From a virus: a stretch of 39,698 nt of DNA. The position numbers and the translations under genes were made by a program. Location: IMG/VR virus record IMGVR_UViG_3300021057_000023, positions 1-39,698 of that record; one strand, 5' to 3'. Below the pieces are notes generated by a model. The model ran no database searches. It worked only from the letters and a program-made list of their open reading frames with translations, and was not told the origin of the DNA. Numbering within the stretch: position 1 is the stretch's first letter; every line of letters starts with the position of its first letter. Below, one piece after another: positions 4,941 through 39,698 of the stretch.

Positions 4941-5413
4941 GTCGATGACACATCCTCCCTCGGAAAATTCACGCGCGCGAGCGGCCCGTAGTATCGCAGC
5001 GCCAGCTCGTCGTATTTCTTCGCGGCGGCGACCTCGTCGTGGAAGTATCCGCCCGACTTCTTCTTCCACTCGACGCAGATCTGCACGTACCAGCAGGTCC
5101 GCTTCCAGGTGACGCCGATGAAGCGCGACGACGGCGGCGTTGCGCGCCGCGGCTTGTCGGCGTTCTGCCGATTCACCGACCGCGAAACGATCCGCAAGTT
5201 GGCCTTTCGGTTGTCCAGCTTGTTGCGATTGATGTGATCGACGTCGCGGGTCGTGTCAAAGTCACCGAGAACGAAACGATGCATCATCATCCGCCGCTGG
5301 CCGTGAACGGCATAGCCCGCGCCGCTCTTCTGCCAGGTTAGTGCCGCGACTCGCTCGAAGTCCTCGTCATCGACGATGGCGACCGCGCCGCGCGTCAACG
5401 GGATCGTCTTCAT
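4937..5413 (-). CDS. HNH endonuclease with C-terminal AP2-like DNA-binding domain (homing-endonuclease type)
   Basis: MHRFVLG...VDHINRNKLDNRKANLR (HNH_3 pattern), then FIGVTWKR..WYVQI...GGYFHDEVAAAKKYDELALRYYG..ARVNF (AP2 pattern). ATG at 5413 follows GGAGGGGG. Confidence 0.8.
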   Translation of the reverse strand: MKTIPLTRGAVAIVDDEDFERVAALTWQKSGAGYAVHGQRRMMMHRFVLGDFDTTRDVDHINRNKLDNRKANLRIVSRSVNRQNADKPRRATPPSSRFIGVTWKRTCWYVQICVEWKKKSGGYFHDEVAAAKKYDELALRYYGPLARVNFPREDVSST

Positions 5414-5523
5414 TCCCCCTCCATCTCCCGCTTCCACCCCACCGCCACCAGCGCCACCGCCAGCATCACCGTCGAGAGGGCGAAGATGACCGCGAGAGCG
5501 CGCCAGGCCCAGTCGGGGATCAT
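5410..5523 (-). CDS. Small membrane protein (37 aa)
   Basis: MIPDWAWRALAVIFALSTVMLAVALVAVGWKREMEGE. ATGA overlaps at both ends. It falls below the ORF-track cutoff. Confidence 0.45.
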   Translation of the reverse strand: MIPDWAWRALAVIFALSTVMLAVALVAVGWKREMEGE

Positions 5524-5756
5524 GCGTCGCTCTCCGGCCACCATCTCTCGTCTTCATAGGCGACCTCGGCGCGGGCCACGTTTTCTCCTTCGGGCGCGCG
5601 CACGAGAAGCTGGACGGCGCGCTTGTTGATCCGACAGATCCAGACCTCAACCCCGCCGGGCTCGCCGATCACAATTCCCTGGCCGAGCTTTCGGCCAATG
5701 ACGGAGACCGGCCTGTCGTCCGGCAGCGGCAGATCGACGGTTTGCTTGCGACTCAC
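5520..5756 (-). CDS. csrA: CsrA/RsmA-like RNA-binding protein (78 aa, with N-terminal extension)
   Basis: VSVIGRKLGQGIVIGEPGGVEVWICRINKRAVQLLVRAPEGENVARAEV aligns by eye to the E. coli CsrA pattern LTRRVGE.l.IGd.v.v.v......V.l...AP..V.v.R.E, including the Arg that corresponds to R44. GTG at 5756 follows GGAAGGAG. Confidence 0.6.
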   Translation of the reverse strand: MSRKQTVDLPLPDDRPVSVIGRKLGQGIVIGEPGGVEVWICRINKRAVQLLVRAPEGENVARAEVAYEDERWWPESDA

Positions 5757-5983
5757 CGCAGCTCCTTCCTCGGCCTCGAGCCCACGTGCCGCTCCCGGTC
5801 GCGCTTTCGCTGGAGCGACGTCCTGAAGGGCAGCGCCTTCAGGCAAGCCGGACATGACGTCACGTCAAGCCACGTCCCGGGCCGAGGGCCGCCTTTGCGG
5901 AAGTGCAGGGCGCCGCAGCCGCAAATGGCGTTCGCCATGCGGTAGGCCGCGGCTAGGCGGTAGGCGGGGGGTTGGGAGGTCAT
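5753..5983 (-). CDS. Zinc-ribbon protein (76 aa; trimmed from 5753..6064)
   Basis: CGCG...CPAC cysteine pairs. ATGA overlap at 5983 with GGGAGG upstream. Confidence 0.6.
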   Translation of the reverse strand: MTSQPPAYRLAAAYRMANAICGCGALHFRKGGPRPGTWLDVTSCPACLKALPFRTSLQRKRDRERHVGSRPRKELR

Positions 5984-6180
5984 CTCTTCACCACCGGCTC
6001 CCAGCACGTCGGCGGCAGCGTCGTCGCGTCGCACCAGGCGGGCCCGCCGTCGCGCATGAGCCACGTCTTCGGCTCATTCGAGATGAAGTAAGACCCGGGC
6101 TTGTGCGGCTGGCATGACGCCGCGCACGCGACGGCGACGACGAGAATCACGAAGAACGAATTCGCCTCGGACGTGGTCAT
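5980..6180 (-). CDS. Small lipoprotein (66 aa), paralog of the N-terminal domain of 7593..8048
   Basis: Signal and lipobox-like FFVILVVAVACAASC, plus the shared motif WCDATTLPPTCWEPV. ATG at 6180 follows GGAGGAG. Confidence 0.6.
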   Translation of the reverse strand: MTTSEANSFFVILVVAVACAASCQPHKPGSYFISNEPKTWLMRDGGPAWCDATTLPPTCWEPVVKR

Positions 6181-6274
6181 GCGAGCTCCTCCGGCGGACA
6201 AGACGAAGCATGGCAAAGCGAGACATGGCGCAACTGGACATGACCTAGCCTGGCGCGACACAACGTGATTGGAG

Positions 6275-6613
6275 TCATCCCGCCGTCCCCCACCGCGCCA
6301 GTTCGCGCTCGACGTCATCGATCGACCGCGCGACGAAGCCGATGCCGCCGGCCTTGCGAAAATCGTCCAGGAACCGCTCCTGCGCCTCGGTGGGCTTGCC
6401 GCGGGGCGCCTTGACCTCGATCGCCAACGGCCAGCCGAGCCAGATGCCGAGGATGTCCGAGACGCCGGGCCGGAAGTGTTTCCCGGGGCGCCGGTAGACC
6501 TTCTTCGTCGGGTCGAACAGGCCGACCGATGCCGTCGGCCAGGCGAGGCAGCGATGGGCTGCGAGCCAATCCAGAATGGCGTTCTGGATCGCCTTCTCGG
6601 GCGTCGTCTTCAA
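6275..6613 (-). CDS. VRR-NUC domain nuclease (PD-(D/E)XK fold)
   Basis: GVSDILGIW..PLAIEVKAPRGKPTEAQERFLDDFRKAGGIGFVARSIDDV matches the VRR-NUC D...E.K...Q pattern. It is the first gene of the leftward operon and uses a TTG start without a clear SD. Confidence 0.7.
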   Translation of the reverse strand: MKTTPEKAIQNAILDWLAAHRCLAWPTASVGLFDPTKKVYRRPGKHFRPGVSDILGIWLGWPLAIEVKAPRGKPTEAQERFLDDFRKAGGIGFVARSIDDVERELARWGTAG

Positions 6614-6803
6614 GGGAAGGACTCAGGCCGCGGGATGACCGCCGCTCATCGGTGGGGGTGATGTGCCCTTCTAGCCCGCGTCCGGCGCGGCGTCAACGAG
6701 ATCCGGGCGCGTGGCGTCGGCGTCGGCGGCGAGGTTCGGGGAGAGTCGGTTTCGTGCGGCCAAAACCCTTTAAAAATAGATGCAGGAACGCATGTGTTAT
6801 AAC

Positions 6804-6832
6804 TTGACGAGAGCCGCCCCGAGTCGTAACCT
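6804..6832 (+). promoter_or_regulatory. Candidate sigma70-like promoter for 6851..7195
   Basis: TTGACG (6804..6809), a 17-nt spacer, then TAACCT (6827..6832), in the only AT-rich patch of the intergenic region. Confidence 0.3.
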
Positions 6833-6850
6833 GAATGAGTAGATCCCAAG

Positions 6851-7195
6851 ATGACAGAACCCGCGCCCGAAGCCGCTTCCGCCCAGGTCGGTCAGCTCGA
6901 CGCCGAGATCGCCGCGCTCGCTGCCGACGTCACGTCCTTACGCCAAAAGCTTCGGCTGAAGATCCGACAGCGCCGCTCATTGGCGCCGGTTCAGCCGCTT
7001 CATGAGGTCGTCGCCGTGGTCCTCGCCGAGCACCCAAAGGGTATGAGCGTCAGCGACCTGATGCGCGCCATACAGGCGCGCGGACGGCTGCTGCATCTCG
7101 ACCACCCGCTAATCAACTTGGTCACGGCGCTGCGGCGTCACGAGCACCGCTTCGTTCGGAAGGACGGCCGCTGGAAGCTCCGGCGTCGGCCGTAA
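6851..7195 (+). CDS. Coiled-coil plus HARE-HTH-like winged-helix DNA-binding protein
   Basis: The C-terminal part VVAVVLAEHPKGMSVSDLMRAIQARGRLLHLDHPLINLVTALRRHEHRFVRKDGRWKL fits the HARE-HTH pattern (..pm...el...i...l....p...l.a.l....F.r...g.W.L). Confidence 0.5.
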   Translation: MTEPAPEAASAQVGQLDAEIAALAADVTSLRQKLRLKIRQRRSLAPVQPLHEVVAVVLAEHPKGMSVSDLMRAIQARGRLLHLDHPLINLVTALRRHEHRFVRKDGRWKLRRRP

Positions 7196-7372
7196 TCGTT
7201 CGGCGTTTACGGCCGCAGTGACGCGGCCGAAAAACGAAGCCTCGCTTGGGCTGCAACCCTTGCGAGGCGTCTAACATAGCTTGGCGCGTAAGGCCGAAGC
7301 GTATGCGTGTACTAATCAAGGTAGCGCGTCGGCCCTCTGCGCGTCAAGCGCGTCAAGGGAAGGACCGCGTCC

Positions 7373-7489
7373 ATGAAGTTCAGTACGAAGTGCCTGCTCG
7401 CGATCGCGATGGTCTGCGGCACGACGATCGTCACCGTCGTCGTGGTGAGCCGCAGCGGCGGGGAGGTGAGCTGCCGGTACAAGCACTGA
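7373..7489 (+). CDS. Small hydrophobic peptide (38 aa)
   Basis: MKFSTKCLLAIAMVCGTTIVTVVVVSRSGGEVSCRYKH. GGGAAGGA lies about 10 nt upstream and a strong hairpin pair follows. It falls below the ORF-track cutoff. Confidence 0.4.
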   Translation: MKFSTKCLLAIAMVCGTTIVTVVVVSRSGGEVSCRYKH

Positions 7490-7504
7490 TGCCGTAGACG
7501 ACGG

Positions 7505-7559
7505 ACGGGCCGCGTGGGGCAACCTGCGCGGCCCGTTCCTATCGCATCAAAAATGCGAT
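7505..7559. terminator. Two adjacent hairpins between convergent genes (bidirectional terminator candidate)
   Basis: ACGGGCCGCG (7505..7514) pairs with CGCGGCCCGT (7527..7536). ATCGCAT (7541..7547) pairs with ATGCGAT (7553..7559) around a caaaa loop. Confidence 0.5.
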
Positions 7560-7592
7560 GCCCGCCCCCACCTCGTCGTCGCGCCTCGGGGG

Positions 7593-8048
7593 CTACTTCG
7601 CCTCGCACTCCCACTCGTCCGGCATGTCGTAGGGCGCCTTGCAGACTTCGAGGATTCCGTTCGCGTTGCGGCCCTCGCAGACGTTGTAGACCCCCTCGCG
7701 GCGGCAAGCGTACTTGGCGCGGGCCTCGGTCGTCCTCGCCCTCTCGGCCGCCTTCTCGTCCTTCGTCTTGAGTCGAACCGTTCCCTTCGGGGGCGGAGGG
7801 GTCGACGACGCGTCGTCCTCGTCGTCAGCCTGGACGTCGACGATGCAATCACTTCGCCTTGAGTCGGAGGCGCACTGGACGGGCTTCCAACAGCGCGGCG
7901 GCATTGTCGAGGCGTCGCACCAATAGAACGCCGAAAGGCCCGTATACCAGTCGTTCGCGGAGATCCAGGAGCGAGGGGAATCGGAGATCGTTGAATGGCT
8001 CGTGCGGCACCCGACGATCAGGAGCCCCGCCGCAAGAATCCGTTTCAT
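7593..8048 (-). CDS. Lipoprotein (151 aa), Cys-rich; candidate lysogenic-conversion or superinfection-exclusion factor
   Basis: MKRILAAGLLIVGC lipobox, WCDASTMPPRCWKPV motif shared with 5980..6180, and a Cys-rich C-terminal domain. It lies directly downstream of the repressor gene on the same strand. Confidence 0.7.
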   Translation of the reverse strand: MKRILAAGLLIVGCRTSHSTISDSPRSWISANDWYTGLSAFYWCDASTMPPRCWKPVQCASDSRRSDCIVDVQADDEDDASSTPPPPKGTVRLKTKDEKAAERARTTEARAKYACRREGVYNVCEGRNANGILEVCKAPYDMPDEWECEAK

Positions 8049-8158
8049 CGCCGCCTCCCACCAAGTTGGTGAGGCCCGGATCGGTGGATTTCGGCGCTAG
8101 GTAAGACAAGATTTGCGCATAGGATTAAGACCCTATGGCTCAGCAGCGCGACATCAGG

Positions 8159-8479
8159 TTACGCTTTGCCTGAAGTCTTTCGCTTGATGACTAGTTCCGG
8201 CATGTGGGCGTTGACGACCCGGAGGGCCTCCCCAAGAGCCACAGGGACCGGCACTTTTGCCGGAGGCGCCCCTTCCAGGAGTAGCTCGTGAAGCGGAATA
8301 CCAAAAACCTCCGCCATCCCCTGAAGCGTTTCCTGCCCGATCCAGGTGTCCCCCGTCTCCAGCCGCGAGACGGTCGGGATCGATAGGCCCACCTTTGCCG
8401 CCAAATCCGCCTGGCTCCAGCCTCGCGCCTTGCGGAGTCGCCGGATGTTTTTCCCCAAGACCAACGCAGGCCGGGCCAT
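8159..8479 (-). CDS. XRE-family helix-turn-helix transcriptional repressor (CI-like)
   Basis: LGKNIRRLRKARGWSQADLAAKVGLSIPTVSRLETGD is a classic HTH_3 pattern. ATG at 8479 follows GGGGGAG. It is divergent from the rightward early operon. Confidence 0.8.
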   Translation of the reverse strand: MARPALVLGKNIRRLRKARGWSQADLAAKVGLSIPTVSRLETGDTWIGQETLQGMAEVFGIPLHELLLEGAPPAKVPVPVALGEALRVVNAHMPELVIKRKTSGKA

Positions 8480-8539
8480 GTCTCCCCCGTAAACGGGTTG
8501 AGCGACATGTAACACGGGCTTAGCGGCAATACCTTCAAT

Positions 8540-8579
8540 CATTGTAGCATATTATATACTCTACAATGCGTTAGCATTG
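8540..8579. promoter_or_regulatory. Operator-like nested inverted repeats in an AT-rich divergent promoter region
   Basis: CATTGTAG (8540..8547) is the inverted repeat of CTACAATG (8561..8568), and CAATGC (8564..8569) of GCATTG (8574..8579). TATACT and TATTAT -10-like hexamers lie between them. Confidence 0.5.
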
Positions 8580-8735
8580 CAGAATATCTAAACTCCGTGC
8601 TAAAAGGTTCCGACGAGCACGAAGCTCGCGGACGGCGCAGACACGGGGGGTGGCGGCGCAGTAGGCGGGTAAAAGGCTCAGGAATTTAGCTGGATTGGAC
8701 TTGCCGGGGCTTAGGGATGGGCACTGGCTTGGGTA

Positions 8736-8800
8736 GGGGCTCCTCAGGTTCTCCACGGAGGGTCTGAGGAGCCCCTCTGCTTTACCTCAGCCACGGAGGG
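8736..8800 (+). promoter_or_regulatory. Structured leader of the rightward early operon (12-bp hairpin with an alternative pairing partner)
   Basis: GGGGCTCCTCAG (8736..8747) pairs with CTGAGGAGCCCC (8764..8775) and is followed by tctgcttt. CCTCAG..CCACGGAGGG is repeated at 8742..8762 and 8785..8800, so CTGAGG could pair with either CCTCAG copy. Confidence 0.4.
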
Positions 8801-8821
8801 GAATTCAACCTAGGAGTTACG

Positions 8822-9346
8822 ATGAACGCCGCCCATCCCACCCGAGCCGAGCCGCTCGCCGCCATCTTCGATGCGTTGGCCGCTCACCGCACCGGCCGCG
8901 CGCCGCTTTCAGTCGACGCCCTGTCGGCTCTGCACGCCGCGCTGGTCGCGCGCGTCGACGAGGTCGTCGCGGCGCTCAATGAGGTGATGCGCGAGGAATC
9001 GAAAGAGCGCTCAGACGCCGCCGCCGCTGAGATCCGCGCGCGCATCCTTCAGTCGCGCCGCGAAATGATCGCCGAGGAGCTGGCCGTCGCCGTCGCCGCA
9101 ACGCCCGACGGCGCGGTCGAGAGCGCGAGATACAGCATCACGACGAAGCTGACGCCGGGTAAGGTCGAATACCTCGTCAAGCACCCGCCCGAGAGCCTCG
9201 TCGACGACCCGACGTGGGGCTCCTGCATCAAGTCGGAGCTGAAGTGGGACGGCAAGCGCCTCAACGCGCTGCTCACCACGGGCGTGCCGTGCTCGTTTGC
9301 GCGCCTCGTGCAAGACTTGAAGCCAGTCATCACCCAGAAAGGCTAG
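8822..9346 (+). CDS. Hypothetical protein (174 aa), first gene of the rightward early operon; weak resemblance to Mu Gam-type organisation
   Basis: AGGAG lies 6 nt upstream of the ATG. It has an N-terminal helical region and lies next to the Erf gene. The Gam idea rests only on size, position and a vague motif. Confidence 0.6.
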   Translation: MNAAHPTRAEPLAAIFDALAAHRTGRAPLSVDALSALHAALVARVDEVVAALNEVMREESKERSDAAAAEIRARILQSRREMIAEELAVAVAATPDGAVESARYSITTKLTPGKVEYLVKHPPESLVDDPTWGSCIKSELKWDGKRLNALLTTGVPCSFARLVQDLKPVITQKG

Positions 9347-9350
9347 TCCC

Positions 9351-10109
9351 ATGCAGAAATCCGACTCCATCAAGGCGATCGCCGCGGCGCTCCTCAAGGT
9401 GCAGGAGAAGCTGAAGGCAGTCCCCAAGAACAAGTTCAACCCGCACTTCAAGTCGCGCTACGCCGACCTCGCCGACTGCCTTGATACGTTGCGCCCGCTG
9501 CTCACCGAGAACGGCCTCCTGCTCTTGCAGCCACACGGCTCCGATGGCGACTTTGCGCGCGTGACGACGCTCATCGTCCACGTCGCCTCGGGCGAATTCA
9601 TCGGCGAGACGGCGGCCGTGAAGCTCGCCAAGCCCGGCCCGCAGGAGGTCGGCTCGGCCGTGACCTACCTGCGCCGCTACGGCCTCTCACTCGTCGGCCT
9701 GATCACTGACGAGGACGACGACGCCGAAGCCGCGCACGGCCGCGGGGGCGAGAAACAGCAGCGCCAAGCGGCACCCCGCCAGCAGCAGCAGGCCGAGCGC
9801 AAGCCGATCCACGCCGGCGCGCCGCAGGACGCCCCGCCGCCGCTCACCGACGGCTACGGCCGCCCCCAGCCTATGCCGGGAAACCCGCAGGCTCGGACGT
9901 CGGGGCCGACCGAGGCGCAGCTTCGGCGGCTGTTCGCCATCCAGCGCAATTCGGGCGTCGATGAGGCCAGCCTCAAGCGTTACATGGCGGCCAAGTGGAA
10001 CGTCCAGACGACCAAGGCGCTCACCCGCGAGCAGTACGACGACGTCTGCGGCTGGCTCGAGGCGCCGGACGCGATGGCGGACGAGGGGCTGAGCGAGACG
10101 CCGTTCTGA
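9351..10109 (+). CDS. erf: Erf-family single-strand annealing protein (recombinase)
   Basis: NPHFKSRYADLADCLDTLRPLLTENGL and GSAVTYLRRYGL are hallmark Erf motifs. A Q-rich linker and a C-terminal domain ending ..SETPF follow. Confidence 0.8.
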   Translation: MQKSDSIKAIAAALLKVQEKLKAVPKNKFNPHFKSRYADLADCLDTLRPLLTENGLLLLQPHGSDGDFARVTTLIVHVASGEFIGETAAVKLAKPGPQEVGSAVTYLRRYGLSLVGLITDEDDDAEAAHGRGGEKQQRQAAPRQQQQAERKPIHAGAPQDAPPPLTDGYGRPQPMPGNPQARTSGPTEAQLRRLFAIQRNSGVDEASLKRYMAAKWNVQTTKALTREQYDDVCGWLEAPDAMADEGLSETPF

Positions 10110-10149
10110 GGGGAATGGGATGTGGGGATACACGCCAAGCGGAGGGGCC

Positions 10150-10992
10150 ATGGCACGGATCAGGACGATCAAACCGCAGTTCTTCATGGACGAGAAGGTC
10201 GCGTCGCTGTCGCACTCGTGCGCGCTCTTTTTCGTCGGCCTTTGGACCATCGCCGACGACGAGGGGAAGTTCCGGAACAGCCCCCGGCAGCTCCACCTCA
10301 TGATGCCGATTTTCGAGACAAGGCACGTGCAGCGGTGGCTCATGGAGCTGACATGCAACGGACAACTGCGCATCAGCGAGGACTCATGCTGGTATCAAGT
10401 CGTCAACTGGCGGCATCAGCGGATTTCAAAGGTCATTCAGCCGCTCGTCAAGGCCGCGGAGATTAAGTGGAAACCGGTTTCCATTCCGAACCCGGACGAC
10501 ACCGGTAGACGCTCGGTAGACGCAAGGAATGGAAAGGAAAGGAATAGGAAGGGAAAGGATTCCCTAACGGGGCGCAGGTCCGGCTTGCGCGCCGCCGAGC
10601 CTCCGAAAGAGCAGCTCGCTCCGCTCGCGACGACGGCCGAGCCGTCGTCCCCCGTGAAAGACTTCATCGCGGTCTACTGCGATGCGTTCAAAGCCCGCTA
10701 CGGCACCTGGCCGACGGTGGGAAAGAAAGGCGCCGGGATCGCCCGCCGCATTGTCGCCGAGGTCGGCATCGCGAAGGCCAAGCTTTGCGCTCAGGCCTAC
10801 GTGGCGATGGGGGATGCGTGGTTCCTCACCCGCAACCACGACCTGGCGACGCTGGAGAGCAACCTCACGAAGGTCGCCGCCTACGCGGACACCGGCCAGA
10901 CCATCACGTCGGCCGGCGCCCGGCAGGCCGAGCTCTACTCGCACAACGCCGCCGTCGTCGACGCGATGCTTCGGGAGGACGGCGCGTCATGA
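10150..10992 (+). CDS. Putative replication organiser/initiator protein
   Basis: MARIRTIKPQFFMDEKVASLSHSCALFFVGLWTIADDEGKF is a conserved phage N-terminal pattern. ATG at 10150 follows GGAGGGG. The track's 10120 start is less likely. Confidence 0.5.
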   Translation: MARIRTIKPQFFMDEKVASLSHSCALFFVGLWTIADDEGKFRNSPRQLHLMMPIFETRHVQRWLMELTCNGQLRISEDSCWYQVVNWRHQRISKVIQPLVKAAEIKWKPVSIPNPDDTGRRSVDARNGKERNRKGKDSLTGRRSGLRAAEPPKEQLAPLATTAEPSSPVKDFIAVYCDAFKARYGTWPTVGKKGAGIARRIVAEVGIAKAKLCAQAYVAMGDAWFLTRNHDLATLESNLTKVAAYADTGQTITSAGARQAELYSHNAAVVDAMLREDGAS

Positions 10993-11573
10993 CCGAGCGC
11001 GAGGCGTTCTTGAAGATGCTCGCCGTGGTGGCCGACCTCTGCGCCTACCGTCTCTCGCCGGAGGTCGCCCGCCTCTACGCCGACCACATCGCCCCGCACG
11101 GACTCCTGGCGGCGGCGGAGGCGCTGAAGCGCCTGATGGTCGATCTCAAGCCCGGCCGCTCTTTCCCGTCGGTGAACGACGTCCTCTCGGCGATGGGCAA
11201 GACGCCGCTCTCTGACGACGCCCAGGCGCGCGACACGGTCTCGAAGATCGTCCAGGCCATCTCGACCCACGGCTACAACTGGCCGCACCGCGCGCGAGCT
11301 GCCGTCGGCGAGATCGGCTGGGCGATCGTCCACCGGATGGGCGGCTGGGAGACCGTCTGCGAGGACTACACCTACGCCCGCGAGAAGACCGTGATGCTCG
11401 CCCAGTGGCGCGAGCTGGCGAAAGCCTTGGCCGAGCGCGCCCGCTTCGGAGAGCTGGACGCGGCGCCAGCGCTGCCGCCGGATCCCGACGCGGCCCGACC
11501 GGCCGTCACCAACCCCTTCGCTCGTCGGGCTCTCGCCATCGCCAACGGGAAGCCACCTGAGGACGACGCATGA
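10989..11573 (+). CDS. Hypothetical replication-module protein (helicase-loader-like, G39P-type pattern)
   Basis: ATGA overlap with the upstream gene. The ..SFPSVNDVLSAMG.. context resembles loader/inhibitor proteins. This is a low-specificity call. Confidence 0.4.
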   Translation: MTEREAFLKMLAVVADLCAYRLSPEVARLYADHIAPHGLLAAAEALKRLMVDLKPGRSFPSVNDVLSAMGKTPLSDDAQARDTVSKIVQAISTHGYNWPHRARAAVGEIGWAIVHRMGGWETVCEDYTYAREKTVMLAQWRELAKALAERARFGELDAAPALPPDPDAARPAVTNPFARRALAIANGKPPEDDA

Positions 11574-11731
11574 GGCTCTCCCGTCTCGTCCGTTGGCTTC
11601 GCCTCGTCTGGCGCCGCCTCATCCGCCGACGCGATTCTAGACCCAAATCCGCCGGCCTGGTGCGGTCGAGCTACCAACCCCCTAGAGCCGCTCAACCTCT
11701 ACCGCCTCGACAAGCAAAGGAGACCCAAGCC

Positions 11732-11947
11732 ATGAGACACCGCGACGCCTGGATCCACTGCACCGGCTGCGGCCACGTCTACCCGCGAGGCTTCGACGCC
11801 GGCTGCAACTGCCAGATGGAGCTTCGTATCCTCGACCCCGAGGACGTGCCGCGGGAGGCCTGGGCGCGCTACGACGGCGGCGTGCATCCCTTGGACCGCG
11901 AGGGCGAGCGGGAGTGGGACTTGAGCGATCTTCGGGAGGGGTTGTGA
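11732..11947 (+). CDS. Small Cys-rich protein (71 aa)
   Basis: ATG at 11732 follows AAGGAGA. HCTGCGH...CNC cysteines. The track's upstream extension (11570..) is Arg-rich and of low quality. Confidence 0.55.
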   Translation: MRHRDAWIHCTGCGHVYPRGFDAGCNCQMELRILDPEDVPREAWARYDGGVHPLDREGEREWDLSDLREGL

Positions 11948-12276
11948 GCCTGCGGGACGACCTGAAGGCGATCCAGGACGCGCGTACCGCCGACTTCGCG
12001 GTGCTCGACGCGATCGGCGTGGAGATCAAAGAGGTCGAGGCGGCGCTCGAAGCCGCCGGCTTGCGCGAGGAGATCGAGGTGCCCATCGGCGACGGCGAGA
12101 ACCTCGTCTGGGCGCGCGGCAACGGGCGCCGGTGGCGACTCATGTACGACGACCCGGACCACGACTGCTTTCGGCCGCTAATCGAGACGCCGCAGGCGGT
12201 CCGCGCGCGGATGCGCGACCCGCTGCGCGAGTTCGTCGCGGCCGTCAGGCGGCGCGTCACGGAGGGACGCCGATGA
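11944..12276 (+). CDS. Hypothetical protein (110 aa)
   Basis: GTGA overlap start at 11944, preceded by GGGAGGGG. Confidence 0.6.
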   Translation: MSLRDDLKAIQDARTADFAVLDAIGVEIKEVEAALEAAGLREEIEVPIGDGENLVWARGNGRRWRLMYDDPDHDCFRPLIETPQAVRARMRDPLREFVAAVRRRVTEGRR

Positions 12277-12479
12277 GCCCGCGCGACAAGCCACGGGCCG
12301 GCGGCCTCGTCGTCAGCATGCGCGTTGGCGAGTCGGTGTTCGTCGGGACGGCGAAAATCACGCTCATCAAGCGTCGCAAAGGCGACGTCGGCGGCCTCCA
12401 GCTGCTCATCAAGGCGCCAAAGGATGTCCTCGTCGTGATGCCCCACCACAGAGCCGCCGCCAAGGAGGGTGACGAGTGA
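12273..12479 (+). CDS. Divergent CsrA-like protein (68 aa)
   Basis: LVVSMRVGESVFVGTAKITLIKRRKGDVGGLQLLIKAPKDVLVV follows the CsrA pattern L.l.R.vGE...iG....i.......v.l.i.APk.V.v, but the Arg equivalent to R44 is not conserved. ATGA overlap with GGAGGGA upstream. Confidence 0.45.
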   Translation: MSPRDKPRAGGLVVSMRVGESVFVGTAKITLIKRRKGDVGGLQLLIKAPKDVLVVMPHHRAAAKEGDE

Positions 12480-13037: not shown

Positions 13038-13188
13038 GTCTACCCAGCGCCATAGACTAACGGTGCTTAAAATCCTGGGACCGAGAGGTCGTGCAGGTTC
13101 AAATCCTGCCGCGGGCACGCCACCTTACGGAGTTTTCCACCTGTGGACACACAGACTGAAAAGTCTACCGCCCATAGACTTTCTATGG
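13038..13188. promoter_or_regulatory. GTCTA-N-TAGAC palindromes flanking the tRNA fragment (candidate integrase/excisionase binding sites)
   Basis: GTCTAcccagcgccaTAGAC at 13038..13057, GTCTAccgcccaTAGAC at 13163..13179, and CCATAGActtTCTATGG at 13172..13188. Confidence 0.35.
13066..13117 (+). other. attP core candidate: 3' portion of a tRNA-Leu(TAA)-like gene (anticodon loop to discriminator)
   Basis: The elements are cttaaaa (anticodon-loop-like), a long variable-arm stem gacc-gaga-ggtc, a T arm gcagg-ttcaaat-cctgc and an acceptor 3' strand cgcgggc plus a. No complementary 5' acceptor strand or D arm lies upstream. The fragment sits 180 nt upstream of the integrase. Confidence 0.55.
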
Positions 13189-13299: not shown

Positions 13300-14385
13300 T
13301 TGAGAGGGCGCGACTTCTTTCACGTCCGAAAGCCCGGCGCCGCCGGCAAGCGGTGGGCGATCGCGCGCCAACGCCGGGGGGCTGACGGCAAGTCGACCTA
13401 CACGGTGATCCCCGAGAGCGACCTGCCCGAACTGGCCGCCATCAACCGCGCGTTCCTGGCCGGCATCCACGACTTCGATCAGGCCTACGCCCAGGTCTTA
13501 GACCTCCGAAAGCGGCTCTATAAGCGCGAGCGCGAGGCCGACCCCAAGCCCCTCACCCACGCCGAGAACGTGGCCTTGATGGAGCGCTACTGGGCGTCGG
13601 AGTACGTCGACCGCGATATCGTGGACCCCGGGTCCATGAAGCGCTCGCTGCGCCGCGCTGTCGAGGCGGTCGGCACGCTCTCGCTCCTCACCGCCACGCG
13701 CCAAGACCTCTGGCTGGCCTTGGCCAACCTGCCGGCCGAGAAGCAGCGCCGGGCGGCCAGCCGGCTAAACCAACTTTTGCGCTTTGCCGGCCGGACAGAC
13801 GTGCGCGTGCGGCTAAAGCGGCCTGAGCGTCCCGACGTCCGCTACGTGACCCTGGCCCAGCTTCGCGAGCTCTCCCCCAAGCTCACCCAGCCGGCGCGCG
13901 ATTTGGCGTGGATCGCCTTTGCCACGGGCCTAAGGGCTGGCGAGATCTTTGGCCTCCGCCCAGAGTCGGTGCGGATGGAGGGCCGCGAGGTCTACGTCGA
14001 GAGCCAGATCGTCCCCTCAGGCCAAAGGCGGCCGACGAAGACGAGAGAGCCCCGGTCGACGCTCGTGGTCCCCGCAGGCCTGCCGGCCCTCGAGCGGTGG
14101 CTAGCGCGCCCCGAGGCCGAGCGCCACGCGCTCCGGAATGAGCGCTACTCGAAAGAGATCAGGGACGCCGCCAGGCGGCTCTGGCCCCATGAGCCCCGGC
14201 GGCATGTGACGCTCCACGGCCTCCGCCACAGCTTCGCCATCCACCTGCTCTCCAAAGACATCGCCATCAAGCGCGTGGCCGAGCTCCTGGGAAACTCGGT
14301 CGTCGTCTGTGAGCGCTATTACGCGGGCTTCAAGACGGCCGACGATGACCTGGCGGCCTTAGCGAAGCGGCTAGCCAAGGCCTAG
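13300..14385 (+). CDS. int: Tyrosine recombinase / phage integrase
   Basis: ATGLRAGEIFGL (Arg I), HGLRHSFAIHLL (H-x-x-R) and VVCERYY (catalytic Tyr). The start is uncertain; a TTG lies at 13300. Confidence 0.85.
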   Translation: MRGRDFFHVRKPGAAGKRWAIARQRRGADGKSTYTVIPESDLPELAAINRAFLAGIHDFDQAYAQVLDLRKRLYKREREADPKPLTHAENVALMERYWASEYVDRDIVDPGSMKRSLRRAVEAVGTLSLLTATRQDLWLALANLPAEKQRRAASRLNQLLRFAGRTDVRVRLKRPERPDVRYVTLAQLRELSPKLTQPARDLAWIAFATGLRAGEIFGLRPESVRMEGREVYVESQIVPSGQRRPTKTREPRSTLVVPAGLPALERWLARPEAERHALRNERYSKEIRDAARRLWPHEPRRHVTLHGLRHSFAIHLLSKDIAIKRVAELLGNSVVVCERYYAGFKTADDDLAALAKRLAKA

Positions 14386-14396
14386 CCTTCCGAGGC

Positions 14397-14827
14397 ATGC
14401 TCAAGAAAGAAACAGCGAAGGTGCAGCGATCGCGAAGGGCAGGAAAACGGGCGGCAGGGACTTCGCCAAGGGCCAGTCGGGAAATCCGGCCGGCAGAGCG
14501 CCCATCCCGCCGGACCTGAAGGCGGTCAAGGCCCTCTCGGCCGACACCTTCAAGCGGCTCGCCACGGTCTACCTCGAGATGCCTTTCCCCGAGGTCGAGG
14601 CCACGGCCGAGGGCAACGGGCCGGCTCTGAACAAGCTGGTGGCGTCGATCATCGTCCAGGCCACCAAGTACGGGGACCACTCGCGGATGAACGCGCTCCT
14701 GGACCGGATCGTGGGCAAGGCGACGGACAAACTTGAGCTGACGCTGCCCGAGCCCTTCATCGTGCGGCGGCTGACGGGTGAGGAGGTCGTCATGGGAGCT
14801 AAGAAGCCCGACGAGGAGGCCTCGTGA
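14397..14827 (+). CDS. terS: Terminase small subunit-like protein (DUF5681-type GQSGNPxGR motif), apparently needing a -1 frame change
   Basis: FAKGQSGNPAGR is encoded at about 14462..14497 in the frame of ORF 14579..14827. That frame has no ATG, GTG or TTG upstream of 14579. ATG 14397 (MLKKETAKVQRSRRAGK) lies in the +1-offset frame. An ATG-only call would be 14579..14827. Confidence 0.55.
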
Positions 14828-15816
14828 CGCGGCTGTTCGAAGTCCGCCCCTACATCATCGCGGAAATCGGCTCCAACTGGCTCACCCTCTCCGACTGCCT
14901 CGAGTCGATCGCCAAGGCGAAGATGGTGGGCGCGGACGCGGTGAAGTTCCAGGCGTTCAGCCACGAGGCGCTGTACGGCTGGGACGACCGAAAGCTCGAC
15001 GCGCTCGGCTCGGTGGAAAGGCACCAGCTGCAGCTGACCTGGCTCCCGAAGCTCCGCGAGAAGGCCGACGCCTGCGGGATCGAGCTGGGCGTCACGGCGT
15101 TTAGCCCCGAGCTCGTGGCTGCGGTCGATCCCTACGTGGGGTGGCATAAGGTGGCGTCGAGCGACTGCGCGTGGCCGCAGCTGCTCGAGGCGGTGCGGCG
15201 GACCGGGAAGCCGGTCGTCATCAGCTTCGGGGCGCATGGGCGCGTGGACGTTGAGGAGGCCTTAAGGCGTCTCGAGGGCACGCCACGCGTGGCGATGTAC
15301 TGCGTCGCCGCCTACCCGGCCTACCACGTGGACCTCGCTGCCGGAGAGCTGTTCTACGAGATCCTTCCGCCCTACCGGCCCGACGAGCCCGTGGGCGTCG
15401 GCTTCTCCGACCACTCGCTCGGCACCGGGCTTGCGCTCGAGGCTGCGAGCCAGGGCTGCACCGTCATCGAAAAGCACGTCACCTTCATCGACGCCGACAC
15501 GCCCGACCGCCCGCACTCACTCGACGCCGACGGCTTCAAGCTGATGGTCGATACGATCCGGGGGAAGCGGGTGCCGACCTTGGGGCCGACGCCTGAGGAG
15601 AGGGCGATGGTGCTCCGTCATAACCGCAGGCTGATCGCCACCCGCGACGTCGCCCAGGGCGAGACGCTTCGCTACGGCGAGAACTTCGGCGCCTACCGCT
15701 CGCTCGAGGACGACTACCGCGGCCTCTCGCCATGGGCGTGGGAGCAGGTCGAGGGGAAGCGCGCCACCAAGGCGATCGCTAGGGGCAAGGGCGTGGGGCC
15801 GGGGGATTTTGAGTGA
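14824..15816 (+). CDS. neuB: NeuB-family nonulosonic acid synthase (sialic/pseudaminic/legionaminic acid synthase) with C-terminal SAF domain
   Basis: PYIIAEIGSNW, GADAVKFQ, WHKVASSD, GKPVVISFG, VGFSDHSLG and TVIEKHVTF follow the NeuB pattern. The C-terminal RRLIATRDVAQGETL...G is SAF-like. GTGA overlap with terS. Confidence 0.8.
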   Translation: MTRLFEVRPYIIAEIGSNWLTLSDCLESIAKAKMVGADAVKFQAFSHEALYGWDDRKLDALGSVERHQLQLTWLPKLREKADACGIELGVTAFSPELVAAVDPYVGWHKVASSDCAWPQLLEAVRRTGKPVVISFGAHGRVDVEEALRRLEGTPRVAMYCVAAYPAYHVDLAAGELFYEILPPYRPDEPVGVGFSDHSLGTGLALEAASQGCTVIEKHVTFIDADTPDRPHSLDADGFKLMVDTIRGKRVPTLGPTPEERAMVLRHNRRLIATRDVAQGETLRYGENFGAYRSLEDDYRGLSPWAWEQVEGKRATKAIARGKGVGPGDFE

Positions 15817-22672: not shown

Positions 22673-23689
22673 GTGGTCAAAAAGGCCGAGGTCTACCTTA
22701 GCTACCAGGGGCTCATCTCAGAGCCCCCGGTGGCCCGCAGCGCCCTCTACAGCCAGGCGTGCTCCAACGACGGCGTCACGATCTCCTCGTGGCGGCCGAC
22801 TTGGATCAAGCACGCCAAGGCCAACAAGAAGCGTTTCGGGTCGTTTAAGGACCACTCGCTAGGCCAGCTTTGGGGGAAGGGACTTTACCGCCCGGCGATC
22901 ATCGCCGGCGCGGGACCTTCCCTCAAAGGCAACGCGCATCTGCTGAAAGACCGAGGCGAGGGCATCCCGCTCGTCTCGTGTCTGCACAACTTCCACTACC
23001 TCGAGGACTTGGGCTGCCCGGCGGACTACTACGTCTCGCTGGACGCCGGCGAGGTCGTGGTCGAGGAGGTTTCCGAAGGCGGGCAGCGCTCGGCCGACGA
23101 GTATTGGGCGCTGACGAAGGATCGGACGCTGATCTGCTACATCGGGACTCACCCCGAGCTCCTCGAGAAGTGGCAGGGCCGGATCCTGTTCTTCAACTGC
23201 CCCGTGCCGGACGACGAGCTGAAGAAGGCCCTCTCGGAGATCGAGACCTTCGGCTGCCACGTCTCCAACGGCGGCAACGTGCTCGGGGCCTGCCTCTACA
23301 TCGCCAAGGGGTATCTCGGGGCCTCTGACATCGTCTTCGTGGGGGCGGACTTCTGCTTCTCCTACGATCACAAGTTCCACGCCTGGGACTCCAAGTACGA
23401 CAAGCACCTTGGCCACTGCGTGAGCCTCACCGACGTCTACGGCGTGCGGCGGCTCACCTGGCAGTCCTATGCCAACTTCAAGGCGTGGTTCGACCACATC
23501 GCTTTGACGGTCCCCGGGACCTGGGTGAACGCCACCGAGGGCGGCTGCCTTGGGTCCTACCCGACCGGGAACCTTGCGGCCTTCAAGTACATGGACCTAG
23601 CCGACGTCTTCAAGACCTGGCGCATGCTGGAACATACGCGCAAGCAGGCCTTCGAGCCCGAGGCCGACGACAAAACCATCCTCTTCTAA
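22673..23689 (+). CDS. maf: Maf-like DUF115 (MAF_flag10) protein: putative nonulosonic-acid glycosyltransferase
   Basis: PAIIAGAGPSLKGNAHLLKD...PLVSC...GCPADYYVSLD and GGNVLGACLYIAKGYLGASDIVFVGADFCFS match the two conserved DUF115 blocks of motility-accessory-factor proteins. Confidence 0.65.
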   Translation: MVKKAEVYLSYQGLISEPPVARSALYSQACSNDGVTISSWRPTWIKHAKANKKRFGSFKDHSLGQLWGKGLYRPAIIAGAGPSLKGNAHLLKDRGEGIPLVSCLHNFHYLEDLGCPADYYVSLDAGEVVVEEVSEGGQRSADEYWALTKDRTLICYIGTHPELLEKWQGRILFFNCPVPDDELKKALSEIETFGCHVSNGGNVLGACLYIAKGYLGASDIVFVGADFCFSYDHKFHAWDSKYDKHLGHCVSLTDVYGVRRLTWQSYANFKAWFDHIALTVPGTWVNATEGGCLGSYPTGNLAAFKYMDLADVFKTWRMLEHTRKQAFEPEADDKTILF

Positions 23690-34103: not shown

Positions 34104-34997
34104 ATGCGCTACGTCATCGTCGGCGGCACGGGGACCATGGGCCGGGCGCTCACCAAGGCGCTCTTGGCCAGGAAAGACACCGAGCGCGTCCTCATCGTCT
34201 CGCGCGGGGAGCTAAAGCAAAAGGAGCTTAGGGACGCCAACCCCGGCGAGTACGCGCGTGGGCGCCTGCGCTTTGTGATCGGCGACGTGCGCGACAAAGA
34301 CGCGATGTACGAGGCGATCGACCCGGGCGTCTCGGCCGTCTTTCTCTGCGCGGCTTTGAAGCACGTCGACGTCGCCGAGGACAACCCGCTAGAGGCCCTG
34401 AAAACCAACGCTCTCGGCGTCGCCAACGTCGCCGAGGCGGCGATGACGGCCGACGTCCCGCACGTCGTCTTCAGCTCGACCGACAAGGCCTGTCTGCCGG
34501 TGAACGCCTACGGCATGAGCAAGGCCTGGGCCGAGCGGTATCTGTGGGCCATGAACCGCCGGCAGGTGGGCACCCGCTTTGCCGTCTACCGCTGGGGGAA
34601 CGTCCTGGGCTCGCGCGGCTCGGTGATCCACGACTTCATCCGAACGCTTGAAACCTCGCGCTCGGTCTCGGTCACCGACCCTCGGATGACGCGCTTTTGG
34701 CTCAAGATCGAGGAGGCCGTCGCCTTCATGCTCTCGACCTACCGCGACGCCGCCCCTGATCGGCCGATGATTCCCAAGATGCGGGCCTCGAGCGTCATGG
34801 AGCTGGCCGAGGCGACCGCCCGGCTCATGAAGATGACCGACTTCGAGGTCAAGGTGGTCGGCATCCGCAACGGCGAGAAGCTTCACGAGACCATCGAATC
34901 GACGCACGAGAAGTGCCTCAGGTCCGACACGGCCGAACGCTTCTCGAAAGAGGACCTTGAGGCCCTCATTGCTCCGCTCATCGAGGGCTGCGCGTGA
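34104..34997 (+). CDS. pseB: PseB/FlaA1/CapD-type UDP-GlcNAc 4,6-dehydratase (short-chain dehydrogenase fold)
   Basis: VGGTGTMG, GDVRDKD, AALKHVDVAEDNPLEALKTN, STDKACLPVNAYGMSKAWAE, RWGNVLGSRGSVIHDF, TDPRMTRFW and GIRNGEKLHE follow the Polysacc_synt_2 pattern. Confidence 0.8.
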   Translation: MRYVIVGGTGTMGRALTKALLARKDTERVLIVSRGELKQKELRDANPGEYARGRLRFVIGDVRDKDAMYEAIDPGVSAVFLCAALKHVDVAEDNPLEALKTNALGVANVAEAAMTADVPHVVFSSTDKACLPVNAYGMSKAWAERYLWAMNRRQVGTRFAVYRWGNVLGSRGSVIHDFIRTLETSRSVSVTDPRMTRFWLKIEEAVAFMLSTYRDAAPDRPMIPKMRASSVMELAEATARLMKMTDFEVKVVGIRNGEKLHETIESTHEKCLRSDTAERFSKEDLEALIAPLIEGCA

Positions 34998-35617
34998 GAA
35001 AGGTCTGCCTCGTCGGTCACCGCGGCGGCATGGGTCGCCGCTATCAGGCGGTCCTCAAGCACCTCGGCTACCGGGTCGTCGGCCACGACTTGGCCGACGG
35101 CTACAAGCCCCTGCGCGTCCGTATCGCCGAAGCCCAGGGATGCGACGGGGTACTCATCGCCACGCCGACCGACGCCCACATTGCGTCCATCCACGAGTAC
35201 ATGCGCGCCGGGCGCCCCATCCTCTGCGAGAAGCCCATCTCCCGCGACCCCTTTGCGCTGCGCGCGCTCTTAGACGACGTGCAGGCCCGAAAGGCGCCGC
35301 TCCAGATGGTCCGCCAGTACGAGAGGCTGGTGGAGGAGAAGGACGAGGGCCTCACCGAGTACGACTACTTTCGCTCAGGATCGGACGGCCTCCATTGGGA
35401 CTGCATCTCGATCGTGTCGCTGGCCAAGGGGACGGTCCGGCTGGCAAGCGAGAGCCCCCTGTGGAAGTGCCAGATCAACGGCCGGCGTCTGTCGCTTGCC
35501 GACATGGACCGTGCCTACGTGGAGATGGTGGACGAATGGCTGAAGGCCCCGCGCGACGACTCCGGGCGGCTCATGGAGTGGCACCTGAAGGTCGCCCAGA
35601 TGAAGGCCTCGGCGTGA
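34994..35617 (+). CDS. Gfo/Idh/MocA-family NAD(P)-dependent oxidoreductase (short form)
   Basis: KVCLVGHRGGMGRRY and LIATPTDAHIASIHEYMRAGRPILCEKPIS match the family signature. GTGA overlap. Confidence 0.65.
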   Translation: MRKVCLVGHRGGMGRRYQAVLKHLGYRVVGHDLADGYKPLRVRIAEAQGCDGVLIATPTDAHIASIHEYMRAGRPILCEKPISRDPFALRALLDDVQARKAPLQMVRQYERLVEEKDEGLTEYDYFRSGSDGLHWDCISIVSLAKGTVRLASESPLWKCQINGRRLSLADMDRAYVEMVDEWLKAPRDDSGRLMEWHLKVAQMKASA

Positions 35618-36345
35618 AGACGGTACTCATCGGCATCCAGGCCCGGTCGACCTCGACGCGGCTGCCGAGAAAGGCGTTTGCCACGATCGGCGATCGGATG
35701 CTCCTAGACCACGTCTTGAAGGCCTGTAAGGACTCGGCCTTTTACCTCAACAACGCGCGCCGCCGGACCCAACTGGCCCGCGTGGCCCTGCTCGTGCCCG
35801 AGGGCGATCCGATCGCCGCGGCCTTTCGCGACCGCTGCTACATCGTCGAAGGCCCCGAGGACGACGTCCTGACGCGCTATGCTTACGCCGCCCAGGAGTT
35901 TAGCGCCCACTACGTGGTCCGAATCACGGCCGACTGCCCCAAGATCCCGCCCTACGTGATCTCGGCCCACGTCGCTCGTGCCCTGGCACCCGGGACGCCG
36001 CTCGACTATCTGTCCAACGTCGACGAGGACGCCCGCACGTCGCCCGACGGCCACGACTGCGAGGTCATCAGCCGGCGGCTTCTGGACCACGTCCACGCCG
36101 AGGCGAAGTCGGCCTTTGACAGAGAGCACGTGACGACCTTCATCCGCCGCGGCGTGAGAGAGAGGACGCTCTCTAGGGACTTTCGCTGCAAGGTGACCGT
36201 GGGCTTTACCGACGACTCGGCCAAAAAGCTTTCCGTCGACACCGAGGACGACCTAAGGCGCGTCAGAGAGGATGACGACCGCGTCGAGGCCAAGATCCGC
36301 CGGGGCCTTGAGATCTACGGCCCCGAGGGAGTCCTGCGCCTATGA
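35614..36345 (+). CDS. pseF: SpsF/PseF-like cytidylyltransferase (CTP_transf_3 family), putative CMP-sugar synthetase
   Basis: LIGIQARSTSTRLPRKAF...DDVLTRY...VVRITADCPKIPP matches the IQAR.gStRLPgK / RiTaDcP pattern. GTGA overlap at 35614. The track's 462-aa ORF is an artefactual upstream extension. Confidence 0.7.
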   Translation: MKTVLIGIQARSTSTRLPRKAFATIGDRMLLDHVLKACKDSAFYLNNARRRTQLARVALLVPEGDPIAAAFRDRCYIVEGPEDDVLTRYAYAAQEFSAHYVVRITADCPKIPPYVISAHVARALAPGTPLDYLSNVDEDARTSPDGHDCEVISRRLLDHVHAEAKSAFDREHVTTFIRRGVRERTLSRDFRCKVTVGFTDDSAKKLSVDTEDDLRRVREDDDRVEAKIRRGLEIYGPEGVLRL

Positions 36346-39420: not shown

Positions 39421-39597
39421 CTAGTTGACGGCGTGGAACAGCTCGCGGCGCTCTAGCTCGATCTGCCGGTCGATCTCGGCGAGCCAGGCTTCCAAGGATG
39501 CGCGGCGGCAGTAGTCAACCCACTCCGGCTCAACGGCTTCGAGGCGAGCGAGCTGGGCGAGGATGGCGCGACGTTCTTGGACGAGGACGGCTAACAT
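39421..39597 (-). CDS. Hypothetical 58-aa protein, last gene of the leftward early operon (start lies inside the terminal duplication)
   Basis: ATG at 39597 is preceded by GGGAGGG and the stop is TAG at 39421. Translation is MLAVLVQERRAILAQLARLEAVEPEWVDYCRRASLEAWLAEIDRQIELERRELFHAVN. It falls below the ORF-track size cutoff. Confidence 0.5.
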   Translation of the reverse strand: MLAVLVQERRAILAQLARLEAVEPEWVDYCRRASLEAWLAEIDRQIELERRELFHAVN

Positions 39598-39698
39598 GGG
39601 AATCCCTCCCGGATAAACAGGACGGACGTTTCCCTATATTACCACGAACTCCGCGTCTATTGACTTCTCCGCCCGCTCCTGGAGCCGCTTTCGGAGCG
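39572..39698 (+). repeat. Terminal duplication, copy 2 (identical to 1..127)
   Basis: Exact match to 1..127. The length equals a common maximum assembler k-mer, which suggests a circular contig overlap. Confidence 0.95.

Follow-up and report, generated by a model that had tools for sequence, protein, structure and literature searches.

CsrA homologues are known from phages, prophages, a plasmid and an integrative and conjugative element (ICE). Alleles of csrA were reported in 30 of 2,517 phage genomes, with host manipulation or repression of CRISPR-Cas proposed as their role (PMC7366521, PMC8450108), and Burkholderia phages carry csrA-like genes even though their hosts lack a chromosomal csrA (PMC7366521). 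Deletion of bci, whose product Bci is a CsrA-domain protein of the Pseudomonas aeruginosa prophage AUS531phi, is reported to affect phage infectivity, quorum sensing, motility, biofilm and pyocyanin (PMC7546807). The plasmid-borne CsrA homologue RsmQ (pQBR103) is reported to take over host regulation (PMC9928087), and CsrT is a CsrA homologue carried by a Legionella ICE (PMC7366521). Here we describe two CsrA-like genes, ORF A (minus strand) and ORF B (plus strand), in IMG/VR virus record IMGVR_UViG_3300021057_000023 (positions 1 to 39,698; this whole stretch of 39,698 nucleotides (nt) is called the window), the genome of a temperate phage from soil metagenomes. Their coordinates and those of the surrounding features are collected in Table 1.

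ORF A and ORF B are genuine genes encoding CsrA-fold proteins of different lineages. We read them as two independent CsrA-fold regulators, ORF B as a core gene of the phage type and ORF A as an optional gene of the canonical type, and we give this reading a probability of roughly 0.55. Both genes have a Shine-Dalgarno sequence, start and stop overlaps with their neighbours and a coding-type GC pattern, and are thus real at the coordinates originally proposed for them. The start of ORF A shares a GTGA overlap with the stop of the upstream gene of 76 amino acids (aa), and its stop shares an ATGA overlap with the start of a 37-aa hydrophobic gene; ORF B is preceded by GGAGGG (12261–12266) and has an ATGA overlap upstream and a GTGA overlap downstream. 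The GC content by codon position is 0.72/0.46/0.77 in ORF A, and that of the third position (GC3) reaches 0.885 in the large genes of the genome, compared with 0.86 within ORF B and 0.77 within ORF A. The longer ORFs that reach to 5855 (ORF A) or begin at 12132 (ORF B) have a GC3 of 0.58 and 0.51, respectively, in their extensions, so these are non-coding in frame and the shorter starts are the right ones.

Searches with hidden Markov models (HMMs) ranked CsrA families first for both proteins in Pfam, PHROG and NCBIfam. Against the Pfam CsrA profile (PF02599), whose curated gathering cut-off of 27 bits lies below the score of ORF A and above that of ORF B, ORF A scored 34.5 bits (E-value, E, 2e-8), with residues 19–66 aligned to profile positions 3–48 of 53. 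ORF B matched phrog_8397, annotated as 'CsrA-like regulator', with 28.5 bits (E 2.2e-6; residues 13–66 on profile positions 4–54 of 64). In NCBIfam, ORF A matched TIGR00202 (E 7e-6) and NF002469 (E 1e-4) far under the equivalog cut-offs, which makes it a family member; neither it nor ORF B is an orthologue of the housekeeping csrA. With a mutual identity of only 26% (pairwise E 0.001), the two proteins are not products of a recent duplication.

Close relatives of either protein were scarce. A word-index search of 5.8 billion proteins returned nothing except the query for ORF A and likewise for ORF B, and ORF A had no match by tblastn in phage genomes or among the JGI metagenome contigs. An exhaustive phmmer search of 1.8 billion cluster representatives with ORF B retrieved ORF B itself and the repeat protein P0003, which was rejected as a relative because its three EVE/ASCH-like repeats inflate the score. 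When ORF B was compared with 50,697 phage records by tblastn, weak matches were obtained only to the Erwinia phages PEp14, Pavtok and Stean, the targets being annotated CsrA-like regulators in PEp14 and Pavtok and a related unannotated region in Stean. A profile built from ORF B and these proteins found eleven relatives, and the thirteen-sequence ORF B profile matched nine CsrA/RsmE/RsmA sequences of the PDB (E 4e-7 to 5e-3), including P. fluorescens RsmE (2jpp, E 3.9e-7) and E. coli CsrA (1y00, E 3.8e-5). Single-sequence phmmer against the PDB found no CsrA for ORF A and gave E 0.7 for ORF B, so that a profile was needed for the PDB match of ORF B.

An AlphaFold2 model of ORF B made without an alignment (predicted local distance difference test, pLDDT, 65) had CsrA/RsmE/RsmA structures as its top four PDB matches, namely CsrA (5z38), RsmE (2mfc), RsmA (2bti) and Geobacillus CsrA (5dmb), with probabilities of 0.99–1.0 and template modelling scores (TM-scores) of 0.47–0.59. 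In this model the C-terminal helix is not predicted, and a Pro follows strand beta5. Five strands and a short helix are seen in the single-sequence model of ORF A, whose pLDDT of 54 makes it too uncertain to be used, so the assignment of ORF A rests on the HMM evidence; its best fold matches, to Acb4 (E 0.3), were discarded as noise. The original prediction had named an AbrB-like fold as an example of an outcome that would speak against it. Pfam, PHROGs and NCBIfam listed no AbrB/MazE-type family for either of the two proteins up to an E of 10, and no AbrB/MazE structure was among the PDB matches of the ORF B model. The HMM searches, together with the profile and model matches of ORF B, bear out the prediction that both proteins are CsrA-like; of the two family assignments, that of ORF A is firm and that of ORF B well supported.

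The CsrA residues most important for RNA binding are R44, V42, L2, I47, V40, L4, R6 and R7, among which L4 and R44 stand out (PMC6692469, PMC7652899). At positions L2/L4/R6/R7/V40/V42/R44/I47 (E. coli CsrA numbering, by alignment of both ORFs), ORF A has S/I/R/K/E/V/R/V and ORF B has L/V/M/R/V/V/M/H. ORF A therefore keeps six of the eight positions unchanged or conservatively replaced, R44 included, and the segment after its position 44 is able to form the usual helix. ORF B retains L2, V4, R7, V40 and V42 but lacks R6, R44 and I47, and has a Pro directly after position 44. The key Arg is thus kept in ORF A (APEGENVARAEV) and replaced by Met in ORF B (APKDVLVVMPHH), just as had been claimed. 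ORF B is strongly basic (isoelectric point, pI, 10.4; net charge +5.7), which fits nucleic-acid binding better than an inert decoy, and its RVGE and APxDV motifs correspond to strands beta1 and beta5, which bind RNA. Overall, ORF A is acidic (pI 5.1), with a basic core (pI 9.3). The N-terminal extensions of both proteins contain a P-x-D-x-P motif that is found neither in canonical CsrA nor in the PEp14 clade.

The two genes differ in their distribution. An identical ORF B protein is encoded on 15 contigs from metagenomes or metagenome-assembled genomes (MAGs) and is present in every related contig, whereas ORF A was found on only 3 metagenome contigs. In the related contig L006, whose integrase is only 49% identical to that of the window and whose late genes are different, a single synonymous change separates the ORF B DNA from that of the window, and ORF B and the next small gene are shared with the window almost base for base; this indicates that the ORF B module has been exchanged between phage backbones. 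In the sibling contigs L001–L003, identity with the window extends through the 76-aa gene, the Shine-Dalgarno sequence AGGAAGGAG and the GTG, is lost after the GTGA and returns at the ATGA of the next gene. The slot of ORF A (L001:2918-3154, minus strand) is there occupied by an unrelated 79-aa ORF with the same Shine-Dalgarno sequence and start codon; its match to the winged-helix family Trans_reg_C is below threshold, its C-terminal part carries a CPRCG motif, and it may be an alternative small regulator. This precise replacement marks ORF A as an exchangeable cassette and ORF B as a conserved gene. As the siblings keep an identical ORF B without ORF A, the function of ORF B is independent of ORF A. 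These data argue against an obligate A–B pair, and they weaken the suggestion in the original prediction that ORF B might pair with or poison ORF A.

Compared with canonical CsrA, RsmA and RsmE, ORF A keeps the pattern of G9, G15, A36-P37, V42, R44 and E46, and ORF B keeps RVGE and APKDV motifs and gives a model that superposes on CsrA and RsmE. Both ORFs differ from the canonical proteins in being only ~22–29% identical to E. coli CsrA and in having extensions before beta1 (17 aa in ORF A, 11 aa in ORF B), and ORF A also has an acidic tail. The phrog_8397 clade, to whose members ORF B is 35–40% identical, includes proteins from the Erwinia phages PEp14 and Pavtok, the Burkholderia phages Bcep22, BcepIL02 and BcepMigl, and podophages of Klebsiella, Serratia and Pseudomonas; no functional test of a protein of this type was found in the literature. 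R6 is absent in all aligned members, and R44 and the C-terminal helix are frequently missing from the clade too. Loss of R44 together with a Pro just after beta5 is common to ORF B, the proteins P0011–P0014 (VLVNLPKK in this region) and gp46 of Bacillus phage vB_BspP_Dartukuta (TPITTPK), while PEp14 and Pavtok retain the Arg. The loss in ORF B is therefore shared by a phage subclade and is not a private degeneration. ORF B differs from the clade in its N-terminal extension, in a 3-residue insertion in the beta3–beta4 turn and in its location, since the members lie in the structural module by capsid or tail genes and ORF B lies in a replication/recombination operon upstream of the integrase gene.

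In a search of the phage collection, E. coli CsrA matched 88 records, each with one copy, and the PEp14-type protein matched 28; the single record common to both was Dartukuta (MW749009.1). Like the window, this phage has a canonical-type csrA on the minus strand left of a helix-turn-helix (HTH) switch and a divergent, R44-less copy on the plus strand, so that a phage with two CsrA-like genes, one of the canonical and one of the phage type, has a precedent in a deposited and annotated genome. However, its canonical copy is ~81–84% identical to E. coli CsrA, which suggests recent capture, whereas ORF A is an orphan, and its divergent copy lies in the late module, not the early one. Bci and the RsmM-type alleles (F116, H66) are, like the two proteins described here, CsrA-domain proteins of temperate phages, but they are 55–69% identical to bacterial CsrA, some with long C-terminal extensions, in contrast to ORF A and ORF B, which have no word-level similarity to anything in the 5.8-billion-protein set. 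RsmQ and CsrT resemble the present case in that a mobile element brings in an extra CsrA that rewires host translation or controls the element's own genes; they differ in residing on a plasmid and an ICE, in having canonical RNA-binding residues and in having no paired divergent second copy.

If the two proteins are independent regulators, ORF B would be a small basic dimeric RNA-binding protein that works without the host CsrA and tunes the translation of phage messages by sitting on GGA-containing ribosome-binding regions; candidate sites lie in the rightward-operon leader and in the Shine-Dalgarno sequence of its own gene. Its RNA specificity may be altered relative to canonical CsrA. ORF A would be an ordinary CsrA-like GGA-binding translational repressor, added during infection or induction, which could act on phage messages and host Csr targets alike; ORF A might plausibly take over the Csr network of the host. 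We infer dimerisation, RNA binding, targets and expression timing for both proteins. A bolder version, which we think unlikely, would make the R44-less and helix-less phage CsrA-like proteins (ORF B, P0011–P0014, Dartukuta gp46 and part of the Bcep22/PEp14 clade) a distinct autonomous family with another RNA specificity or ligand. ORF B would then act early through CACGGAGGG (at 8754, 8792 and 12258) to set translation of the rightward operon, and ORF A would separately reprogramme a CsrA–FliW circuit of the host, maybe in connection with the Maf/PseB/NeuB-type sugar genes of the phage.

As to the RNA sites themselves, it had been claimed that the gene junctions of this genome are saturated with GGA. 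The motif is indeed frequent at gene starts, 39 of 58 genes having a GGA within 25 nt upstream of the start, but nearly all of these lie at -8 to -15, the Shine-Dalgarno position, and there is no enrichment of CsrA-type sites. For the CsrA/RsmE-type site CANGGANG, 25 occurrences compare with 24.4 expected, and for CACGGAGG, 3 occurrences, all on the rightward transcript, compare with 2.6 expected; enrichment of GGA or CsrA sites was accordingly rejected as a sign of regulation. No Rfam family, and hence no Csr/Rsm-type sponge RNA, was detected in the window. We regard CACGGAGGGA, which contains the Shine-Dalgarno sequence of ORF B and whose 9-mer recurs twice in the rightward-operon leader, as a weak lead to an autoregulatory site. 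The leader itself is a candidate CsrA-type target, without statistical support. It is conserved in the siblings even where the operator region and first gene are different, and it carries one CACGGAGG at the tip of a nearly perfect hairpin and a second one 38 nt away, a spacing inside the bridging range of CsrA dimers, which connect sites 10–63 nt apart (PMC7652899). Plus-strand GGA occurs 10 times in 8480–8821, with 5.4 expected. The hairpin could also be a terminator needing antitermination, a processing site or a regulator-binding element.

The densest plus-strand GGA cluster lies elsewhere, at 10503–10559, where two 11-bp direct repeats (CGGTAGACGCT) are followed by seven AAGGA (10524–10559). 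These repeats are inside the linker of the replication-initiator gene (10150..10992) and probably represent the replication origin, an arrangement similar to that in lambda O. The AAGGA array was also considered as an RNA sponge, which was rejected because its position inside the initiator gene beside the 11-bp repeats is more simply explained by an origin.

Several of our results weigh against two independent regulators. ORF B scores 18.4 bits (E 0.0022) against PF02599, under the cut-off, and both proteins fall short of the NCBIfam equivalog cut-offs of 70–73 bits (ORF A 26 bits, ORF B 16 bits). The fold search with the low-confidence model of ORF A returned no CsrA. The S at L2 and the E at V40 are non-conservative changes in ORF A, and the N-terminal extensions of both proteins adjoin the strand that forms the RNA-binding edge. 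In canonical CsrA, loss of R44 abolishes binding; ORF B, without R44, R6 and the helix, may thus not bind GGA RNA at all. The location of ORF B-type genes among structural genes in other phages could mean a non-regulatory role. Since CsrA-type sites are not enriched, the proposed targets are post hoc; in the leader, the GGA at the hairpin tip is partly paired and the count of CACGGAGG does not exceed chance, and the hairpin, with UCUGCUUUA behind it, is equally compatible with a terminator.

It might be argued from the sub-cut-off Pfam score of ORF B, from the failure of the poor ORF A model to retrieve CsrA and from the lack of significant ORF B relatives in the exhaustive phmmer search that the CsrA similarity is spurious for one or both proteins, which would then be short beta-rich proteins of another fold such as an AbrB/MazE-like swapped hairpin. 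We consider this very improbable: CsrA is at the top in three libraries for both proteins with no AbrB-type family at E up to 10, the score of ORF A is above the curated Pfam cut-off, and CsrA structures are matched by the profile of the ORF B relatives, which also matches RsmE, and by the alignment-free ORF B model. A structural role for ORF B is unlikely in our view. ORF B-type proteins would be small assembly or structural accessories, not regulators, that share the CsrA beta-sandwich, and ORF B would be a relocated member, as PEp14, Pavtok and the P0014 contig have the homologue immediately in front of the major capsid gene and Dartukuta has it flanked by a gene for a structural protein and a minor tail gene, and as R44 is often absent in the clade. 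Yet ORF B itself lies amid replication and recombination genes just upstream of the integrase gene, a long way from the capsid genes, the conserved RVGE and APxDV motifs belong to RNA-binding strands, and the pre-capsid position equally suits translational control of capsid synthesis.

The absence of R6, R44 and the helix from a protein with the CsrA fold also suggests that ORF B could be an anti-CsrA, as the original prediction proposed, which would form inactive heterodimers with the host CsrA or ORF A, or mimic a partner, and thereby de-repress CsrA-controlled genes. The tentative host phylum, Planctomycetes, is among those listed as having CsrA plus FliW (PMC4682653). Against this, ORF B is unchanged in the siblings without ORF A, and the clade has relatives in phages of Burkholderia, the genus reported above to have no chromosomal csrA, which speaks against a role needing the host CsrA. 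Moreover, ORF B is only ~25–30% identical to canonical CsrA, making an interdigitated heterodimer uncertain, and its net charge is unexpected in a mere poison subunit. Heterodimer poisoning of the host CsrA is therefore disfavoured, and the anti-CsrA role as a whole appears rather improbable. We judge it just as improbable that ORF A plays no part in the phage cycle and is a passenger (moron), transient in one sub-lineage and affecting the lysogen or nothing. Its precise replaceability and its occurrence on 3 contigs fit such a gene, as do a GC3 below the 0.86–0.92 of its neighbours and the lack of relatives in two protein/contig searches; however, the ORF is intact, has a strong Shine-Dalgarno sequence and forms part of an operon in which it is translationally coupled, and its RNA-binding residues are kept despite strong divergence from bacterial CsrA, which suggests continued selection. 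On balance, we prefer two independent regulators, the conserved ORF B and the exchangeable ORF A.

Table 1. Features of the ORF A and ORF B regions (window coordinates)
Feature	Position	Strand	Description
37-aa gene	5410..5523	minus	Hydrophobic (membrane-type), downstream of ORF A; 3' boundary of cassette
ORF A	5520..5756	minus	78-aa CsrA-family protein, GTG start at 5756; 17-aa N-terminal extension, five predicted beta strands, acidic C-terminal tail
Swapped cassette	5524..5752	minus	From GTGA start overlap to ATGA of next gene; replaced in L001–L003
76-aa gene	5753..5983	minus	Upstream of ORF A and translationally coupled to it; conserved in sibling phages
Shine-Dalgarno of ORF A (AGGAAGGAG)	5762..5770	minus	GTG start 5 nt downstream
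HARE-HTH gene	6851..7195	plus	Between repressor and leftward string of ORF A
XRE/cI-type repressor	8159..8479	minus	PHROG transcriptional repressor families; HTH_3/HTH_31 in sibling loci
Palindrome TTGTAG-N13-CTACAA	8542-8566		AT-rich divergent control region next to repressor
Rightward-operon leader	8640..8821	plus	Conserved in siblings; candidate CsrA-type target
19-bp hairpin, nearly perfect	8735-8776		In rightward-operon leader; CACGGAGG at tip (8754-8761), then UCUGCUUUA
Second leader CACGGAGG	8792-8799		~19 nt before Shine-Dalgarno AGGAG (8812-8816)
CACGGAGGGA	12258..12267	plus	Contains Shine-Dalgarno of ORF B; candidate autoregulatory site (weak lead)
ORF B	12273..12479	plus	68-aa divergent phage-type CsrA-like protein, ATG start at 12273; 11-aa N-terminal extension; R6->M, R44->M, E45->P; no C-terminal helix
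tRNA-Leu 3'-like fragment	~13060-13122		Variable arm, T-arm, acceptor, CCA; upstream of integrase; probable attP core
Tyrosine integrase	13300..14385	plus	Downstream of ORF B gene string

The ends of the window are identical over 127 bases (1–127 = 39572–39698), indicating a complete circular assembly with a true genome size of ~39,571 bp; the sibling contigs measure 39,707–39,750 bp. When 25 kb of the window were compared with phage genomes by megablast, nothing matched, and ARAGORN found no tRNA in the window. The rightward gene string comprises Erf, the replication initiator, several small genes, ORF B, a zinc-ribbon ORF and a 105-aa ORF, and is followed by the attP-like tRNA-Leu fragment, the integrase and then the terminase, portal, capsid and tail genes. 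The leftward string contains a VRR-NUC nuclease, small genes, ORF A, an HNH endonuclease and further small genes, so that both CsrA-like genes sit amid non-structural genes. The original prediction placed one gene in each of two divergent early operons. The two do lie on opposite strands flanking the repressor, but the plus-strand HARE-HTH gene interrupts the leftward side, and we infer the early timing of both strings from position only. A sigma-70 promoter scan found nothing and was of no aid in defining the operons.

A host in the PVC (Planctomycetes-Verrucomicrobia-Chlamydiae) group, probably a planctomycete, is weakly suggested by two observations. The related contig L006 (GCA_035626935.1, DASPMT010000198.1) is binned in a Phycisphaerales MAG, and a 27-nt attP-like pattern matched only the T-arm and acceptor of tRNA-Leu(CAG) of Verrucomicrobiales, a match that is not diagnostic; a longer pattern of 46 nt had no exact match in the GTDB genomes. 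No FliW-like or other partner domain was detected in the genes neighbouring ORF A and ORF B, and PADLOC gave no defence-family match for ORF A, ORF B or their neighbours.

Other genes of the phage are worth noting. A set of sugar-pathway genes (14824–15816, 22673–23689, 34104–34997, 34994–35617 and 36342–37553) encodes a nonulosonic acid synthase of the NeuB type (128 bits), a protein with an MptE-like/Maf-type domain whose gene immediately follows the capsid genes (79 bits), a dehydratase of the Polysacc_synt_2 family (PseB/FlaA1-type; 257 bits), and also an oxidoreductase and a class-III aminotransferase. Such genes glycosylate flagellin elsewhere; in this phage they could modify virion proteins or host surface structures. 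Two small minus-strand genes, 7593–8048 and 5980–6180, encode products with lipoprotein-type signal peptides (MKRILAAGLLIVGC... and ...VAVACAASC...). The former lies directly downstream of the repressor gene, a common location of superinfection-exclusion genes. In the left arm of the sibling phages, a 78-aa gene (225–461 of L001, minus strand) has a weak Acb2/Tad1-hairpin Pfam match, which suggests a sponge of the anti-CBASS/Thoeris type.

Phage CsrA-like genes, and even a phage with two copies, are already on record, so the window represents a further, very divergent example, which extends these genes to a probable planctomycete host and opens no new category. Almost none of the catalogued phage-borne CsrA homologues has had its function tested. 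The present phages offer a natural comparison between an R44-less ORF B, present in all relatives, and a canonical-type ORF A that is present or absent at a defined slot, and this contrast could separate 'phage-autonomous' from 'host-directed' roles of CsrA-like proteins.

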